Shown one piece after another: positions 1,360 through 35,958 of a stretch of DNA of 64,000 nucleotides; positions within the stretch are counted from its first letter, which is position 1, and each line of letters begins with the position of its first letter. The stretch spans positions 55,386 through 119,385 of the forward strand of contig CAKSER010000001.1 in the NCBI GenBank assembly GCA_934447715.1. Reading direction: 5' to 3'. This DNA is from an uncultured Eubacteriales bacterium. Lineage in GTDB: Bacteria > Bacillota > Clostridia > Oscillospirales > CAG-272. Under the pieces are notes generated by a model. That model did not search any database, had not been told where the DNA came from, and saw nothing but the letters and a program-made list of their open reading frames with translations. The position numbers were made by a program, and so were the translations under genes.

Positions 1360-2778
1360 TTAACCAAGACGAATGTTTGCTTTGATCCACGGGCCGCCGT
1401 CGGAAACCTTGACCCATTCCTTGTAGCCCTTGCCGCACATGCCGGAGCCGCCGAGCTCTACTGTGTTAGAAAGCATTGAAATCGACTTGAGCAGATCCGG
1501 GACATAGCCTGTAAGGACAACCGGCGAGAAGATTCTTCCGGTCAGCTTGCCGTCCTTGATTTCTCTTGCGTGGCTTACCATGCACTGGATTCCCCAGTTC
1601 TTCGGGTCCTCCATTCCGGATGAGGGCGATTCGAGCAGAAGTCCGTCCTTGACAGAAGCGATCATCTCCTCCGGAGTTGAATTTCCTGCCTCAAAGAAGG
1701 TGTTTGTCATACGCGTGTATGCCTTTCTTTCGACAGACTGTCTTCTTCCGTTTCCGGTCGGCGAAACGCCGAGTCTCGCTGCGCTGAGAGCGTCTGCATA
1801 TCCGCTTACGAGTGTTCCGTGGTCGATTACGAGTGTGTCCTTTGCAACATTGCCCTCGTCGTCGAAGAAGAAGGAGGCGACCTCTGTAGCAGAGGCAGCG
1901 CCGTCGCGCATGTTGACGATTTCGGATGCAACCTGCTTTCCGACCCAGTCCTTTGCAAGCGCTCTGTCCTTTACGAACATATCCATTTCAACGCCGTGGC
2001 CGAATGCCTCGTGAACGATCATTCCGGTGACCTCCGGTGTGCAGACGCATTCATATGTTCCGGGAACAAGCGGCTCGGAATCGAGCAGATCCATGCAGGT
2101 CTTTACGATTTTCGGAGTGTGCTCCTCCATTCTGTCAAGAAGCTCTGCGCCGCCGAGTGTAGAAAAGCCCTCGTAGGCGTTCTTGATTTCGTCGCCGCGC
2201 TTTGATATTACAGCGATGCTTCCGCAGGTCCAGAGGACATTCTGTGTAAGATCGCGTTTGTCGGATAAAAACAGCTTGTGATATTCCTGATAGGAAAGTC
2301 TGAAAAGCGCGTCGATAAGACGGCTGTCAAGAGCCATAGTGCGCTCGCGCATTCCGCTCAGCGTGTTTACGATTGCCTCGTCGCCGAGCTCTGCCGGATG
2401 ACGCTCATATTCGGTGCTCTTGTCGAATGAGAGCTCTTCCTCCTCAAGAATCGGTGTTTCGAATCTTTTGTATGCGCTTCCGTTGCCGTTTACCGAAACC
2501 TCTATCTGCCCCAGAATGTCCGGAATAAGCTCGTCGGATATTACGTTTCCTGCATACTCTGCATATGCGCCGTTGTGGTAAACACGTGCGCAGAAGCCGC
2601 GCTTTCCGAAGGTGTCGCCGGATTGAACCTGTGTTCCGGACGCGCTTACGGCATAGCCTTTTGCCTTGCTGTCCGCTGCCAGAACAGATGCATATTCATA
2701 TTTTGCCGAAAGAGCCTGCTGAAGCTTTTTGAAAAGCGGTTTGTTTTCCGAAAGATACTTACTTTCCTTTACTTTCAT
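1360..2778 (-). CDS. tldD: Metalloprotease TldD
   Basis: 472 aa with the motif HEAFGHGVEMD (HExxxH), typical TldD length, and the SD AAGGAG upstream. Confidence 0.85.
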   Translation of the reverse strand: MKVKESKYLSENKPLFKKLQQALSAKYEYASVLAADSKAKGYAVSASGTQVQSGDTFGKRGFCARVYHNGAYAEYAGNVISDELIPDILGQIEVSVNGNGSAYKRFETPILEEEELSFDKSTEYERHPAELGDEAIVNTLSGMRERTMALDSRLIDALFRLSYQEYHKLFLSDKRDLTQNVLWTCGSIAVISKRGDEIKNAYEGFSTLGGAELLDRMEEHTPKIVKTCMDLLDSEPLVPGTYECVCTPEVTGMIVHEAFGHGVEMDMFVKDRALAKDWVGKQVASEIVNMRDGAASATEVASFFFDDEGNVAKDTLVIDHGTLVSGYADALSAARLGVSPTGNGRRQSVERKAYTRMTNTFFEAGNSTPEEMIASVKDGLLLESPSSGMEDPKNWGIQCMVSHAREIKDGKLTGRIFSPVVLTGYVPDLLKSISMLSNTVELGGSGMCGKGYKEWVKVSDGGPWIKANIRLG

Positions 2779-3118
2779 ATAAATTGCTCCTTTTTTCTAT
2801 ATTGATCTGCTTCTGATTTGTTTTTCTGCCGGGCTTCTTCTGAAAACAGAAGTTTTAAAGAATATCTGTTTTTTAAGCAGCCCCGGGTCTGATAAATCAT
2901 AAATTATAAGTCAAAAATCAACCTATATTAACATATCAAAATAAGTATATCATCATTTTCCTGTTATTTCAAGCGGTTTTGAGCAGTTTAAGACCGTTTC
3001 GGGGGATTTTATTTAAAAGGTAATTATCGTGTTGAGATTACATATTATGTTAGTGGTGAATTTGTGTCCGAAAATCCCGGCAAAATCAAAAAACATAAAA
3101 GAACAAGGCGGCACGGCT

Positions 3119-3625
3119 ATGGAAATATCGATTGTAAGAAGGCTCCAGAAAAACGGGAATCTAAAGAGCAGGCTCGAATATCCGGCTTGCGGAATCGAAA
3201 AAACCGATGAATTTTACAGGCAGCTCGCAGAGGGATGCGTGTCGGAGGAATTTACGACAAATCTTTCGTGCAGGCTCTGCTGTTCTTCTGAAAACGCATA
3301 CAGCCTTTATTTTGATCTGAGGTACTATAAAGGAAGCGAGCTTGTGTTTTTTAAGAGATTCAGCGACAACCGAAAGCAAAACGGGCTTTGTATTATGCCT
3401 GAGGAGGTTTTTGTTCATCCGGCTATGATAAAAAAGCGCTTCGTGCTTAAAAGCACATCCGACTGGTATTTTCTTGACGGGAAAATAACCGTTTTTAAAA
3501 ACACCTTCAGGCCGGGAGACGGGCAGGGAATAAGGAAATCCGCCGAAAGCAGGTTCATTGTTGAACGGTTTCCGGATATGGCGGATATAAGACCCACATT
3601 TACAGATTGCCACTTTGTTAACTAA
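3119..3625 (+). CDS. Hypothetical protein (about 168 aa)
   Basis: Start taken at the internal ATG (MEISIVRR) after AAGGCGG. No family recognised. The antisense ORF 3161..3613 looks like a shadow. Confidence 0.5.
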   Translation: MEISIVRRLQKNGNLKSRLEYPACGIEKTDEFYRQLAEGCVSEEFTTNLSCRLCCSSENAYSLYFDLRYYKGSELVFFKRFSDNRKQNGLCIMPEEVFVHPAMIKKRFVLKSTSDWYFLDGKITVFKNTFRPGDGQGIRKSAESRFIVERFPDMADIRPTFTDCHFVN

Positions 3626-5689: not shown

Positions 5690-5749
5690 TTTAATCGGTC
5701 AATAAGCAAAAATAGGAAAAAATAATAAAAAATAAGTAAAAAAAGATAA

Positions 5750-6034
<285 letters not shown>

Positions 6035-6085
6035 TAAAGCGGCTTAGGCGTTTTAATTACTACAACAAAAAAGGAAGCGCAATAA

Positions 6086-6589
6086 ATGGAAGGTTTTGAG
6101 AGCTTCGTCGGAATTGACTTCTGGACATGTCTTTTTACGCTCTGCAACCTTATCATTCTGGCTCTTGTAATGAAGAAATTCCTTTTCAAGCCTGTCAAGA
6201 AGATGATCGACGACAGACAAAAGGAAATTGACGGTCTTTATGAGGATGCCGGAAAGAAGAATGAGGAAGCCGAGAGAATACAGAAGGAGTATCAAGAAAA
6301 GCTTGACACGGCAAATGCCGAAAGCGAGGAGATACTGAAAAAGGCACAAAGGAAGGCACAGCTCCGCGAGGAAGAAATACTGCGTGATGCGCAGGAAAAG
6401 GCGAGAATTACGCTGAAGCGCGCAGAAGAGCAGGTAGAAATGGAAAAGAAGCGCGCGGTAAACGAAATCAAGGATGAGGTCTCCGGAATTGCAGTAGATA
6501 TTGCGTCCGCAATAATCGAAAAGGATGTTTCGGAGGACGAGCACAGAGAGCTTATCGACAAGTTTATCTGCGAGCTCGAAGATAAATGA
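6086..6589 (+). CDS. atpF: F0F1 ATP synthase subunit b
   Basis: One N-terminal TM helix followed by a long charged coiled coil, in the expected operon position. Confidence 0.85.
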   Translation: MEGFESFVGIDFWTCLFTLCNLIILALVMKKFLFKPVKKMIDDRQKEIDGLYEDAGKKNEEAERIQKEYQEKLDTANAESEEILKKAQRKAQLREEEILRDAQEKARITLKRAEEQVEMEKKRAVNEIKDEVSGIAVDIASAIIEKDVSEDEHRELIDKFICELEDK

Positions 6590-7125
6590 ATATGATAAAT
6601 CGCAATGAATATGCAAAGGCGCTTTTTTCGCTTTGCGAGGAGGAGGGAATTACCGATGCTGTTTTTGAGCAGCTCGGCTTTGCCTCGGAAATAATGAAGG
6701 AAAATCCGGAATATGTAAAGCTTCTTGACACGCCGACAGTAAAGGCGTGCGAAAAGGCTGCGCTTATAGATGAGGCGTTTAACGGATTTGAGCTCTATTT
6801 CCTTAACTTCCTCAAGCTGCTTTGCGAAAAGAGAGAAATGTGCGCTCTTTGCGACTGCAAAAAGGAATTTACAAGGCTGTATTTTAACAGCAGGGGAATT
6901 GTCGAATGCGAGGCTGTCACCGCGGTTTCGATGACCGAAAAGCAGCTTGCCTCTCTTAAGGACAAGCTTGAGGGGATTACGAAAAAAAAGGTGCTGCTTA
7001 AAAACAGAGTGGATCCCGGTATCCTCGGCGGAGTTAAGGTTCGCATGGAGGACATACAGCTTGACGGAAGCATAAAAAGCCGTCTTGACAAGCTGAAGGC
7101 AAGCCTTGAAAACGCAATTGTCTGA
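6586..7125 (+). CDS. atpH: F0F1 ATP synthase subunit delta
   Basis: 179 aa. The ATGA overlap with atpF and the C-terminal GGVKVRMEDIQLDGSIKSRL match the OSCP/delta family. Confidence 0.85.
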   Translation: MNMINRNEYAKALFSLCEEEGITDAVFEQLGFASEIMKENPEYVKLLDTPTVKACEKAALIDEAFNGFELYFLNFLKLLCEKREMCALCDCKKEFTRLYFNSRGIVECEAVTAVSMTEKQLASLKDKLEGITKKKVLLKNRVDPGILGGVKVRMEDIQLDGSIKSRLDKLKASLENAIV

Positions 7126-34502: not shown

Positions 34503-34536
34503 ATCATCCGTCGCGAGGCGAGAGCCAAGCGTAAAT

Positions 34537-34609
34537 GGGAGCTTAGCTCAGCTGGGAGAGCATCTGCCTTACAAGCAGAGGGTCACAGGTTCGATCCCTG
34601 TAGTTCCCA
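34537..34609 (+). tRNA. tRNA-Val (anticodon TAC)
   Basis: Cloverleaf folded by hand: acceptor GGGAGCT/AGTTCCC, anticodon stem TCTGC/GCAGA with loop CTTACAA, and T-loop TTCGATC. Confidence 0.9.
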
Positions 34610-34614
34610 TTTGT

Positions 34615-34691
34615 GGCCCGGTAGTTCAGTTGGTTAGAACGCTAGCCTGTCACGCTAGAGGTCGTGGGTTCGAGTCCCATCCGGGTCGCCA
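34615..34691 (+). tRNA. tRNA-Asp (anticodon GTC), CCA encoded
   Basis: Acceptor GGCCCGG/CCGGGTC, anticodon loop CTGTCAC, T-loop TTCGAGT, and a 3' GCCA. Confidence 0.9.
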
Positions 34692-34720
34692 TTTATCCCT
34701 TGCTAAACCGGCATGGGTTT

Positions 34721-34793
34721 GCCTCTGTAGCTCAGTTGGTAGAGCGGGGGACTGAAAATCCCTATGTCGTTGGTTCAATTCCGACCGGAGGCA
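34721..34793 (+). tRNA. tRNA-Phe (anticodon GAA)
   Basis: Acceptor GCCTCTG/CGGAGGC, anticodon loop CTGAAAA, T-loop TTCAATT. Confidence 0.9.
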
Positions 34794-34850
34794 TTTGTTT
34801 CGGCAAAGCCGGGACGATAGAGCTACGGACAACCGGAGCAGTCAAAGGAT

Positions 34851-34923
34851 GCGGATTTAGCTCATTTGGTAGAGCGCGACCTTGCCAAGGTCGAGGTGGC
34901 GGGTTCGATCCCCGTAATCCGCT
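34851..34923 (+). tRNA. tRNA-Gly (anticodon GCC)
   Basis: Acceptor GCGGATT/AATCCGC, anticodon stem CGACC/GGTCG with loop TTGCCAA, T-loop TTCGATC. Confidence 0.9.
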
Positions 34924-34925
34924 TT

Positions 34926-34957
34926 AGCTCCCGATTTAATTGGGAGCTTCTTTTTTT
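34926..34957 (+). terminator. Rho-independent terminator after tRNA-Gly
   Basis: AGCTCCC/GGGAGCT stem followed by TCTTTTTTT. Confidence 0.75.
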
Positions 34958-35002
34958 CTCAAATCTGCATATAGTTGCATATAATAAAACAGAAATAAAT
35001 AC

Positions 35003-35073
35003 GGCGCCATAGCCAAGCGGTAAGGCAGAGGTCTGCAAAACCTTTATCCCCGGTCCGATTCCGGGTGGCGCCT
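35003..35073 (+). tRNA. tRNA-Cys (anticodon GCA)
   Basis: Acceptor GGCGCCA/TGGCGCC, a 3-bp D stem, anticodon loop CTGCAAA, and T arm CCCGG-TCCGATT-CCGGG. Confidence 0.9.
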
Positions 35074-35084
35074 TTAATACAAAA

Positions 35085-35108
35085 AGCACCCAAACCCGGG
35101 TGCTTTTT
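35085..35108 (+). terminator. Rho-independent terminator after tRNA-Cys
   Basis: AGCACCC/GGGTGCT stem followed by TTTTT. Confidence 0.75.
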
Positions 35109-35126
35109 GTGTTAAACCCGAAGGGC

Positions 35127-35176
35127 GGAATCGGACCGGGGATTAGGCGGCATGCCGCCGTCCGGGTGGCGCCTTT
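35127..35176 (+). other. Partial tRNA-Cys copies: an inverted T-arm fragment plus a direct copy of the 3' end
   Basis: 35127-42 is the exact reverse complement of tRNA positions 35047-62. 35161-76 (TCCGGGTGGCGCCTTT) is an exact direct copy of 35060-75. Confidence 0.8.
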
Positions 35177-35182
35177 GAAAAA

Positions 35183-35211
35183 AGAGCATTGCAAAAGCAA
35201 TGCTCTTTTTT
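35183..35211. terminator. Second terminator-like hairpin after the tRNA-Cys fragment
   Basis: A 10-bp stem AGAGCATTGC/GCAATGCTCT with loop AAAA, flanked by A6 and T5 runs. Confidence 0.7.
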
Positions 35212-35213
35212 CA

Positions 35214-35397
35214 ACGAAATAAATCCCTTCGGGATTTGTGAAATGCGCTACGCGCGTGAAATATGCCTTTGGCATGTGAAATGTCTGCGGACGTGGGAGG
35301 ATTTATTTCATTTCACGCTGCGACCGCAGGGAGCAACATTTCACAATTTCGAGCCTGCAAGAAATTATTTCACATCCGGCACAGCCGGATATTTCAC
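35214..35397. repeat. Mirror-symmetric array of the heptamer GTGAAAT/ATTTCAC interleaved with unrelated small hairpins
   Basis: GTGAAAT occurs at 35238, 35256 and 35276, with a degenerate ACGAAAT at 35214. ATTTCAC occurs at 35310, 35338, 35367 and 35391. Each interval holds a different stem-loop. Confidence 0.8.
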
Positions 35398-35448
35398 TCT
35401 TTACATAATGAAAAATATATTTTATACTAATTGTAAAGGGGGTGATTT

Positions 35449-35793
35449 ATGGCTGAATCAAAATTACGTGAGCTGTCAATGAATTTTGCAGTCGAGGTGT
35501 TGAAAATTTGCGACGGAATAAAAGGTCATTCTTCAATTGTCAACCAAATGTAACGTTCAGCAACCTCTATCGGTGCAAATATTCATGAAGCAAATTATGC
35601 ACAAAGCAGATCTGATTTTGTTGCAAAGCTGCAGATTGCTCTGAAAGAATGCTATGAAACCGAGTACTGGTTAGAATTGTTTGTCAAATCGGGTTTGCTC
35701 GGCTGCGAAGCAGCAAAGAAAGCATGCTCCGATTGTGGGACAATACGCAAGATTTTGATTTCCTCCATCAACACCGCAAGGGGCAGCATGTAA
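35449..35793 (+). pseudogene. Four-helix-bundle protein gene (23S rRNA IVS protein / Avd family) interrupted by one in-frame TAA
   Basis: Hand translation gives MAESKLRELSMNFAVEVLKICDGIKGHSSIVNQM*RSATSIGANIHEANYAQSRSDFVAKLQIALKECYETEYWLELF. The TAA at 35551-53 sits where the family has Leu (TTA). SD is AAGGGGGTGA. Confidence 0.8.
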
Positions 35794-35958
35794 CAAAATG
35801 TCTGCGGACGCAAAATGAAAGTGCAATATAATTAGACGTTGATTATGGATTTGTTTTATAATAAAATTCTCATATGAATAAAATGGGATTTTATGGTATT
35901 TTGCAGTCAAAAAGCCTCGGCTTCACCGCATTTTCATATAAGCTACACATTGTTTTCA

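Follow-up and report, generated by a model that had tools for sequence, protein, structure and literature searches.

The Gut-1 motif as one half of a mirrored, terminator-anchored hairpin array linked to four-helix-bundle genes in gut Clostridia

What kind of element is formed by a block of short, strand-partitioned repeats that lies between a five-tRNA operon and a small gene in contig CAKSER010000001.1 of an uncultured Eubacteriales bacterium? The block is found in a 64,000-nt stretch of this contig, from now on referred to as the window, and consists of GTGAAAT heptamers followed by their reverse complement ATTTCAC, the heptamers acting as linkers between hairpins. Both strands of the window together contain 15 copies of GTGAAAT, compared with 11.45 expected from shuffles. 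Seven of these 15 fall within 160 nt and are strictly split by strand, whereas the density of the other eight copies predicts about 0.02 for such a stretch. Because these seven copies in 160 nt compare with eight elsewhere in 128 kb (both strands), the block is not due to chance; sequence reading and pattern search bear out the seven exact heptamers pointed out in an earlier note that was made from the sequence alone. Our analysis shows that the block belongs to a conserved family of modular elements that is found in gut and rumen Clostridia and has an analogue in Akkermansia; the window carries a slightly decayed copy, and the left half of this copy is the Rfam motif Gut-1 (RF01706).

The left half of the window block matched Gut-1 on the plus strand in an Rfam cmscan with 74.2 bits, well over the gathering score of 50 (E = 5e-13). 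The alignment covers positions 1-77 of the model with all three stems paired, and the left half contains CAAYGAAAU followed by three GUGAAAU-separated hairpins. On the minus strand, the right half reached 43.2 bits in a relaxed-threshold scan; this value under the threshold fits with the degenerate state of two of its hairpins, hp5 and hp6. Among 18 loci scanned, the left half, whose hairpins are short, scored over the Gut-1 threshold in all 17 full bipartite relatives (54-80 bits), while a truncated array (L401; loci are designated by L numbers) gave no match. The right half, whose hairpins are longer, is at threshold on the opposite strand in five better-kept relatives (50-54 bits). It is thus near certain that the window block is Gut-1 plus an undescribed mirror half. 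Gut-1 was published as a stand-alone small RNA (sRNA) class of 77 nt without a proposed function (Weinberg et al. 2010, Genome Biol 11:R31, PMC2864571). The paper reports no more than its occurrence in human-gut metagenomes, with 43 representatives, and considers it likely to be a non-coding RNA; the alignment consensus consists of three hairpins and an upstream pyrimidine run followed by CA, with nothing downstream (PMC2864571). The window and the published motif agree in that the window's left half is full-length and above threshold, and both come from the human gut. Gut-1 as published lacks the second half, the terminator-like hairpin (hpT), the long-range helix (P0) and the gene linkage described below for the window family; none of these, nor a position at tRNA or tmRNA genes, is mentioned in the paper or its alignment, and tandem copies at 240-nt spacing are present inside that alignment. 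The later literature that we searched contained no further mention of Gut-1 and no function proposed since 2010.

The family was sampled by a pattern scan of one genome per species and a metagenome scan, which together gave 64 unique bipartite elements. A generic hairpin-chain finder was too permissive and was tightened before use, and covariation and loop statistics were obtained with our own anchored parser, since hairpin lengths vary in the short half, so that this half was misaligned when 26 full elements were aligned with MAFFT. Carriers are mostly metagenome-assembled genomes (MAGs) of gut and rumen Clostridia, namely Oscillospiraceae, Ruminococcaceae, Acutalibacteraceae and Christensenellaceae. 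The search for similar arrays elsewhere, which the earlier note had proposed, recovered more than 90 loci sharing one architecture: the GTGAAAT block precedes the ATTTCAC block at 92 loci and follows it at 2, and 53 of the 64 unique elements have exactly four plus four linkers once degenerate linkers are recovered. The full unit measures about 220 nt. From the left, its conserved order is a terminator-like hairpin, CA, (A/G)YGAAAT, hp1, GTGAAAT, hp2, GTGAAAT, hp3, GTGAAAT and hp4 (CTGCGG); this is followed by GTGRG, the centre, ATTTCAC, hp5, ATTTCAC, hp6 (AAT...ATT), ATTTCAC, hp7, ATTTCAC and T. A BLAST search of phage and plasmid collections with a consensus-like element found no match, and nearly all hits of a viral-contig scan were unrelated repeats, only L012, L039 and L088 being Gut-1-like.

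In the window, every spacer is a palindrome of a different sequence (Table 1), and the predicted folds of both strands are much more stable than those of shuffles, whether computed for RNA or for DNA (z -4.7 to -7.4). Hairpins hp1-hp4, hp6 and hp7 have the form previously described for them and share no sequence with one another. The further hairpin CTGCG-AC-CGCAG (35318-29) is present but has a 2-nt loop; comparison with the family indicates that the spacer at this place is a hairpin of 17-21 nt that has become degenerate in the window. The statement that the block contains no T-runs holds for its interior, which is also not a set of terminators, but directly to its left, and as part of the unit, lies a canonical A-run/stem/T-run hairpin. 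As proposed, the block does not code for protein; the only open reading frames (ORFs) that overlap it are spurious. Mechanical ORFs cross the tRNAs and the array at 34862-35275 (minus strand, 137 aa) and 35189-35482 (plus strand, 97 aa), and a public gene call on an identical contig (L240, 137 aa, no Pfam match) is almost certainly spurious.

Table 1. Features of the window element and its immediate surroundings (window coordinates).
Feature	Position	Strand	Basis
tRNA-Cys, last of five-tRNA operon (Val, Asp, Phe, Gly, Cys; 34536-35073)	35003-35073	+	ARAGORN, Rfam tRNA
Second terminator between tRNA-Cys and element	35083-35112		
Inverted copy of tRNA-Cys T-arm	about 35125-35143		
Duplicate of tRNA-Cys 3' end, TCCGGGTGGCGCCTTT, just 5' of terminator hairpin	35160-35176	+	sequence comparison
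hpT, GAAAAAAGAGCATTGC-AAAA-GCAATGCTCTTTTTTC, bidirectional-terminator-like hairpin, left end of repeated unit	35177-35212	.	sequence reading
Short-hairpin half, Gut-1 (RF01706)	35212-35287	+	cmscan, 74.2 bits
H1, degenerate first unit ACGAAAT	35214-35220	+	sequence reading
GTGAAAT heptamers	35238, 35256, 35276	+	pattern search
Short-half parts: hp1; H2; hp2; H3; hp3; H4	35221-37; 35238-44; 35245-55; 35256-62; 35263-75; 35276-82	+	
P0 5' arm, GAAATAAATCC, overlapping H1 and hp1 5' arm	35216-35226	+	
hp4, GTC-TGCG-GAC, most conserved hairpin sequence (CTGCGG core)	35283-35292	+	family listings
Centre, GTGGGAG-GATTTATTTC	35293-35309	+	
P0 3' arm, GGATTTATTTC, 3' part of centre	35299-35309	+	
Long-hairpin half	35310-35397	+	minus-strand Gut-1, 43.2 bits
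ATTTCAC heptamers (complement of GTGAAAT)	35310, 35338, 35367, 35391	+	pattern search
Long-half parts: H'1; hp5 (degenerate here); H'2; hp6 (loop enlarged here)	35310-16; 35317-37; 35338-44; 35345-66	+	
Long-half parts, continued: H'3; hp7; H'4	35367-73; 35374-90; 35391-97	+	
Outward promoter-like site TTTACA-17-TATACT, directly after last heptamer	35400-35428	+	consensus scan, 10/12 matches
Four-helix-bundle pseudogene, PF05635/TIGR02436 family	35449-35793	+	translation; family profiles
Second copy of AAAT + hp4 + G	35796-35810	+	exact 15-nt direct repeat

Folding and comparison of homologous loci, the check suggested in the earlier note, revealed covariation both in the hairpins and in a new long-range helix, P0, which is absent from the earlier description of Gut-1. 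The first linker together with the 5' arm of hp1 is complementary to the 3' part of the centre. The longest exact complementary run with an element's own centre has a mean of 10.1 nt, compared with 5.3 nt when centres are swapped between elements (maximum 6.9 in 200 shuffles), and at least six covarying classes exist in which both segments change together (AAATAAATCC, AAATTTGCCC, AAATTCGCC, AAATTCGTTCC, AAATCCACCC and AAATCCGTCC). As the 5' arm of P0 overlaps H1 and the 5' arm of hp1, P0 and hp1 are mutually exclusive, and through this competition the element has at least two alternative folds. An element of another linker class, located after the second tRNA-Arg gene of L266 (3590-3810), has GTGAAGC/GTGAAGT on the left and ACTTCAC/GCTTCAC on the right, along with its own covarying long-range helix (AAGTGTGCC/GGCACACTT).

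The elements have a fixed orientation relative to stable-RNA genes. A same-strand tRNA or tmRNA gene adjoins upstream in 24 of 37 genome loci and in 33 of 57 loci overall, always on the GTGAAAT strand and with 0-3 nt between the end of the tRNA gene and the left hairpin. Isoacceptors found in this position are Arg, Trp, Leu, Tyr, Gly, Asn, Ala, Gln, Glu, Ser, Thr, Val, Met, Lys and Cys, with tmRNA in one lineage. A T-run of at least 5 nt lies upstream in 41 of 62 relatives. The terminator hairpin is part of the element, since it is inside units that are duplicated at different places within one locus (L151, 247 nt, 95.5% identity; L182, 218 nt, 96.8%), and it is likewise included in a 125-nt direct repeat of L289. 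This hairpin doubles as a putative bidirectional terminator for the tRNA, tmRNA or protein gene on its left. Arrays with a single half are also found directly 3' of protein-gene terminators. These single-sided arrays (L125, L126, L135, L156, L203, L208, L230, L231 and others) consist of four GTGAAAT-hairpin units and end in a conserved purine-rich, Shine-Dalgarno-like tail (GTTAAGGAAG, GTGAAGGAGG) followed by a hairpin and an A/U-rich stretch; they represent a related but distinct architecture.

Loci without an adjacent tRNA gene often carry a displaced 3' fragment of one, including the window (tRNA-Cys), L242 (tRNA-Met) and L261 (tmRNA), and an analogous CCACCA fragment is found 5' of the terminator hairpin of the Gut-1 element in L247. 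Islands that integrate into tRNA 3' ends leave fragments of this kind. The duplicate of the tRNA-Cys 3' end in the window is most likely a displaced attachment-site fragment from such an island, and the segment 35074-35176 as a whole looks like the scar of a former tRNA 3'-end integration. At L242, positions 1-1108 are 99.5% identical to the window, the similarity beginning precisely where the Gut-1 match begins (35212), while the upstream context differs and consists of tRNA-Leu, tRNA-Met and a tRNA-Met 3'-end fragment in place of the terminator hairpin; the locus represents a second copy in the genome or else a join at the repeat, recombinant or chimeric. Large serine recombinase genes (Resolvase, Recombinase and Zn_ribbon_recom domains) are present in L400 (1309-2973), ending just 5' of the ADH gene of a 96%-identical relative, and in L247/L248 (720-2318), ending just 5' of the Gut-1 terminator hairpin. 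The L400 and L247/L248 loci are hot spots for integrated elements.

The second recurrent association is with a small gene encoding a four-helix-bundle protein, PF05635 being the recurrent neighbour in the flanks of the 64 elements. An intact homologue of the gene product matches PF05635 (E = 3.4e-25, Pfam) and TIGR02436 (E = 2.4e-28, NCBIfam), and the closest solved structure is 2RLD (E = 1.5e-21), deposited with five chains. We know of no general function for PF05635 proteins, a group that includes ORFs of 23S rRNA intervening sequences and relatives of Avd from diversity-generating retroelements (DGRs). Besides the 2010 description of Gut-1, the literature searched on the motif and on PF05635 proteins yielded a DGR review and a genome paper on an unrelated subject. 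The four-helix-bundle protein gave no match in a PADLOC defence search and one weak match in PHROGs (E = 0.044), to a family of unknown function. In the window the gene has an in-frame TAA (35551-35553) for a conserved Glu (NQLERSATS to NQM*RSATS) and a replaced C-terminus. The stop is also found in the translation of L242 and is implied in assemblies that are 100% identical over the gene, and because of this recurrence the gene is considered a real pseudogene and not a sequencing error.

In 14 of 60 elements, drawn from several element subfamilies, the last heptamer is followed at a distance of 49-75 nt by the start of a gene for a homologue of about 115 aa, and the element-linked homologues range in protein identity from 100% down to about 66%. 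The association also holds in the direction from gene to array. All three homologue groups chosen for long contigs carry a full array upstream, preceded respectively by a tmRNA gene, by tRNA-Arg and by an integrated element that encodes a serine recombinase; two groups on short contigs do so as well (L409/L410, and L411, where the contig is cut within the long half). The links to tRNA loci and to PF05635 genes that the earlier note had surmised are thus found over dozens of loci. Decayed genes occur too, being frameshifted in L145 and L370 and reduced to 3' fragments fused to the last heptamer in L386 and L387. PF05635 proteins are extremely abundant in gut metagenomes: at E <= 1e-10 at least 7,992 protein clusters are related to the subfamily of the window gene, and most of the best 120 are on contigs of 0.5-1.5 kb. 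In an Akkermansia sp. MAG (L123), a 118-aa homologue occupies the middle of a bipartite unit of about 195 nt, one of five or more in tandem. These units have four ATATAAC linkers on one side and four GTTATAT-type linkers on the other, and the gene is enclosed by a direct repeat of about 45 nt. It follows that hairpin arrays, each lineage having its own linkers, are not confined to Firmicutes. Two regions of L123 carry arrays (1976-3324 and 5700-7050), one with tandem ATATAAC/GTTATAT-type arrays and the inserted PF05635 gene, the other combining GTGAAAT and ACGAGATT linkers. There is good support for the view that the elements make up one modular family, multi-copy and terminator-anchored, and that this family is coupled to four-helix-bundle cassettes.

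Several loci indicate how element and gene are combined. In L289, a 125-nt direct repeat (96% identity), which spans the terminator hairpin and continues through the short half as far as hp4, flanks the centre, long half, promoter, four-helix-bundle gene and a MazG-like ORF. In L247, a second terminator hairpin and short half lie 3' of the gene and are fused GTGAAAT|ATTTCAC to a second copy of the promoter. This segment (2880-2990) is a deletion derivative in which the short half is joined to the last linker. The junction, a perfect palindrome of 14 nt, shows ATT microhomology at the ends and is what replication slippage across a folded structure would be expected to produce. The window has a shorter version of this layout: the hairpin unit that the earlier note had seen recurring on the far side of the gene is an exact 15-nt direct repeat (AAATGTCTGCGGACG, 35279-93 and 35796-810; E = 4e-4 within the region). 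Together with GCATGT at 35785-90, the right-hand repeat extends to an imperfect copy of about 24 nt of 35270-93, so that GCATGT..AAAT-hp4-G (15-24 nt) is all that is kept at this cassette flank; it is the remnant of a second short half flanking the cassette. Hairpin hp4 marks the right edge of the direct repeats flanking four-helix-bundle cassettes in both the window and L289. In L401, a relative whose ADH is 94% identical, a tRNA operon is followed by the terminator hairpin, GTGAAAT, hp1, GTGAAAT, hp4 and GTGAGGAG, after which a window-like ADH upstream region follows directly, without long half or four-helix-bundle gene. This was the only informative locus among ADH relatives of 90-96% identity, the others having different neighbourhoods; a search for an empty site at the window locus, based on exact protein matches to ADH and AlaX, recovered nothing but this arrangement and contigs that break off within the tRNAs or the element. 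Single MAGs contain 2-4 copies on separate contigs of their draft assemblies, and metagenome contigs often start or end inside the element (L243 and L245 at 35254, L244 at 35301, and many more loci), which identifies it as an assembly-breaking repeat at tRNA loci. In L266-L275, two identical tRNA-Arg(acg) genes bound a unit of about 1.3 kb that contains the element, the four-helix-bundle gene and a 183-aa ORF in this order. The unit is assembled as separate contigs 1.0-1.5 kb long and is apparently in tandem in L271, and the arrangement suggests local amplification or a circular form.

Whether the conserved fold is one of RNA or of DNA can be approached through base pairs, loops and promoters. 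The short half yielded 79 distinct hairpins with 341 Watson-Crick, 5 G.T and 5 A.C pairs, and the long half 118 distinct hairpins with 735 Watson-Crick, 12 G.T and 8 A.C pairs. About 97% of stem pairs are Watson-Crick; wobble pairs are not in excess and reveal no strand bias. Of 197 hairpins, 180 have C-G as the loop-closing pair. On the plus strand, triloops of the short half are UNC in 52 of 63 cases, while the long half has GNA triloops (34 of 55), GNNA tetraloops (39 of 47; 24 GNRA and 15 GNYA) and 45 G.A against 2 T.C mismatches, mostly tandem 5'-GA/3'-AG in Y-GA-R context. The cGNAg and cGNNAg loops are therefore on opposite strands of the two halves and follow the dyad symmetry of the element. 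Both are classic loops of extra-stable DNA mini-hairpins. Selection on RNA favours GNRA and UNCG loops, tolerates G.U pairs and disfavours GNYA loops, and we know of no stable RNA loops of the UNC or UNNC type. A consensus scan found no promoter that would fit between the terminator hairpin and the first linker, and promoter searches upstream of single-sided arrays gave nothing consistent. After the last heptamer, a promoter-like site is found on the plus strand in 15 of 61 elements and on the minus strand in 3 of 61, with 3.3 expected from shuffles; its -35 box starts 0-4 nt after the heptamer. The element thus contributes a terminator at its left end (hpT) and often a promoter at its right end. 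Given the loop types, the lack of a wobble excess, the missing room for a promoter and the absence of a conserved minus-strand promoter, we lean towards an element that would act at the DNA level, as a single-strand fold, rather than as RNA.

Our preferred reading, which we put forward tentatively and at somewhat less than even confidence, is that of a structured, multi-copy and recombination-prone DNA module resembling repetitive extragenic palindromes and bacterial interspersed mosaic elements (REP/BIME), which would bound and dock four-helix-bundle cassettes and would not be a simple sRNA gene. Such an intergenic module would probably be mobile ("selfish") and would act in the form of folded single strands, its constant linkers and CTGCGG hairpin being read by a factor supplied in trans, and its two arrays could zip via complementary linkers into a branched rod. 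It may bound and dock the small four-helix-bundle cassettes in the way in which the PF05635 ORF of 23S rRNA intervening sequences is framed by complementary flanks. Two parts of this proposal are speculative: that the element moves by recombination at hp4, and that the four-helix-bundle protein is its binding partner.

A number of observations weigh against this reading. The 15-nt repeat of the window is short, neither a true empty site nor an excised circle was found, and no transposase or recombinase is consistently adjacent in the element flanks. No RAYT transposase turned up in the flanks of the 64 elements, whole genomes not having been searched for it. About 77% of elements are without an adjacent four-helix-bundle gene. 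As for the zipped rod, linkers are almost invariant in the main class, so that covariation cannot inform their pairing, L230 joins convergent GTGAAAT and GTGAATT arrays whose linkers are non-complementary, and a simple rod of paired linkers is topologically at odds with the covarying long-range helix. As for DNA as the selected form, single-sided arrays end in a hairpin and U-rich tail in the GUGAAAU orientation, the G.A mismatches and GNRA loops of the long half are no less typical of RNA than of DNA, and transcription may occur by terminator read-through or from the opposite strand. The curators of Gut-1, moreover, judged the motif to be RNA from its covariation.

Compatible with the preferred reading, though improbable, is a protein-binding platform, a possibility that the earlier note had listed as well. 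Eight evenly interspersed heptamer sites between hairpins would be bound by a cognate protein, for which the neighbouring PF05635 protein is an obvious candidate, for autoregulation of the promoter or assembly of a nucleoprotein complex. The adjacency of array and gene across diverged subfamilies and in a second phylum with a different heptamer, and the placement of the -35 box right after the last heptamer, agree with such a role. Avd, a DGR protein of the PF05635 family, is a basic pentamer that binds nucleic acid, and the five chains in the 2RLD deposit point in the same direction. However, about three quarters of elements have no such gene next to them, the window gene is a pseudogene, four plus four sites do not match a pentamer, and binding of duplex DNA would not need palindromic spacers.

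We consider it equally unlikely that the element is a single multi-branched RNA in tRNA sense, made by terminator read-through and acting in cis, whose zipped rod would be a processing signal of the RNase III type, a stabiliser or an insulator that separates the stable-RNA operon from the four-helix-bundle or host gene downstream, similar to the stems of 23S intervening sequences. The earlier note had listed a multi-branched RNA with heptamers pairing across the two halves, and the predicted minimum-energy fold does pair H2:H'4, H3:H'3 and H4:H'2 in a rod with four-way junctions (-67.6 kcal/mol, z -4.7). The prevailing four-plus-four count agrees with this, and four complementary linker classes exist: GTGAAAT/ATTTCAC, ATGAAAT/ATTTCAT (L409, L410), GTGAAGY/RCTTCAC (second element of L266) and GTTATAT/ATATAAC (Akkermansia). 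Position-specific compensation in the predicted register is seen in the second element of L266 and in L409, too few independent cases, and the commonest right-linker variant, ATTTCAT, keeps a G.T or, on the tRNA-sense strand, a G.U pair. The fixed polarity relative to the tRNA and the presence of the long-half G.A tandems and GNRA loops on the tRNA-sense strand also favour a read-through RNA. Against the pairing stand the near invariance of the linkers and the existence of single-sided arrays, and shared recognition of one motif on both strands would explain the covariation of linker classes equally well. Such an RNA would first have to pass a strong intrinsic terminator, the four-helix-bundle gene is served by a promoter of its own 3' of the array, and the short half has UNC loops on this strand. 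The well-supported P0 competes with the rod, and arrays are found after protein genes as well as in tandem without cargo.

Less probable still, and amounting to an extension of the Rfam reading to both halves, are two convergent genes for small trans-acting RNAs, each consisting of four GUGAAAU-hairpin units and ending near the centre, with heptamers serving as a sponge for protein or RNA. Gut-1 matches on the plus strand at left and on the minus strand at right, the latter reaching the threshold in the five better-kept relatives, would be expected here, as would the strong hairpin covariation, the ending of single-sided arrays with GTTAAGGAAG, a hairpin and a U-rich tail, and the pairing of arrays with different linkers in L230. 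However, the left array begins 0-2 nt after a canonical terminator with the tRNA just upstream, which leaves no room for a promoter, and minus-strand promoters right of the long half are at the level of shuffles. G.U pairs are not in excess over A.C, loops in the GUGAAAU orientation would be UNC/UNNC, the tandem G.A mismatches of the long half would become U.C/C.U, and the centre contains no terminator.

The remaining candidates were rejected. A CRISPR array, already dismissed in the earlier note, would have identical repeats of about 23-50 nt and does not agree with 7-nt repeats and palindromic spacers, and the match to CRISPR-DR63 is at chance level (19.9 bits, E = 2.7). In a ToxI-like type III antitoxin RNA, which precedes the gene of an endoribonuclease toxin, the units would not differ in sequence as they do here, and the neighbouring PF05635 gene has no PADLOC match. 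Mimicry of CRISPR repeats, parS/NBS half-sites (ParB/Noc), mimicry of tRNA-Glu/Phe anticodons, Rex/CRP-type operators and a replication origin or single-strand initiation signal were dropped as mere resemblances or for failed membership. A chance cluster or an assembly artefact, the latter named in the earlier note as fatal to its observation, has the frequent contig breaks inside the element as its only related fact and is ruled out for practical purposes by recovery of the window sequence in seven contigs from six independent samples, the more than 90 loci and the Rfam E value.

These results join two orphan annotations, Gut-1 and PF05635, in one testable system and offer first concrete leads to the nature of Gut-1. 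What is new is that Gut-1 is half of a fixed, mirrored four-plus-four element that is anchored at tRNA and tmRNA terminators and coupled to four-helix-bundle genes in two phyla, and both the Rfam Gut-1 model and its "sRNA" type may need revision. In practical terms, the element breaks metagenome assemblies at tRNA loci. A more far-reaching and doubtful possibility is that Gut-1-type arrays are folded attachment or boundary sites, as single-stranded DNA or RNA, of an unrecognised cassette system in gut Firmicutes and Akkermansia. PF05635 cassettes would then dock at the CTGCGG hairpin or the centre of an array in the tRNA/tmRNA trailer, with recombination machinery acting in trans and the four-helix-bundle protein as array binder. 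If true, this would constitute an integron-attC-like or intervening-sequence-like system and would assign a function to both Gut-1 and PF05635.

Three known systems resemble the element. Like integron attC sites, it conserves structure over sequence and contains 7-nt boxes that are reverse complements of each other (GTGAAAT/ATTTCAC, compared with GTTRRRY/RYYYAAC), small cassettes are bounded by the sites, and the cassette itself contains no recombinase. It differs from attC in having direct-repeat boxes in each half instead of one R''-L''/L'-R' pair, in its independent hairpins and in carrying a terminator and often a promoter; no IntI-type integrase recurs in the element flanks, and to our knowledge classical integrons have not been reported in Firmicutes. 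The 23S rRNA intervening sequences, from which PF05635 takes its name, likewise place a PF05635 ORF in a stable-RNA unit, and their complementary structured flanks have a counterpart at three loci. Complementary-linker arrays are located on both sides of the ORF in L247, L289 and L123, but not in most other loci or in the window. Unlike intervening sequences, the element is found in a tRNA/tmRNA trailer, has arrays of hairpins linked by 7 nt and not one long stem, and its gene has its own promoter; an Rfam scan found no rRNA match in the window, and the element is not inside a 23S helix. Closest in behaviour are the REP/BIME elements of Enterobacteria and Pseudomonas, which the earlier note had also suggested. 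Shared are extragenic palindromes in inverted clusters 3' of genes, multiple copies, a motif beside each hairpin and a tendency to recombine; the eight hairpins form two inverted blocks directly 3' of tRNA, tmRNA or protein-gene terminators. The likeness does not extend to the GTAG tetranucleotide: where REP has GT[AG]G and families of similar palindromes, the window element has the 7-mer GTGAAAT and hairpins that all differ within one element, and its family adds a fixed four-plus-four layout, a closing helix and a four-helix-bundle neighbour.

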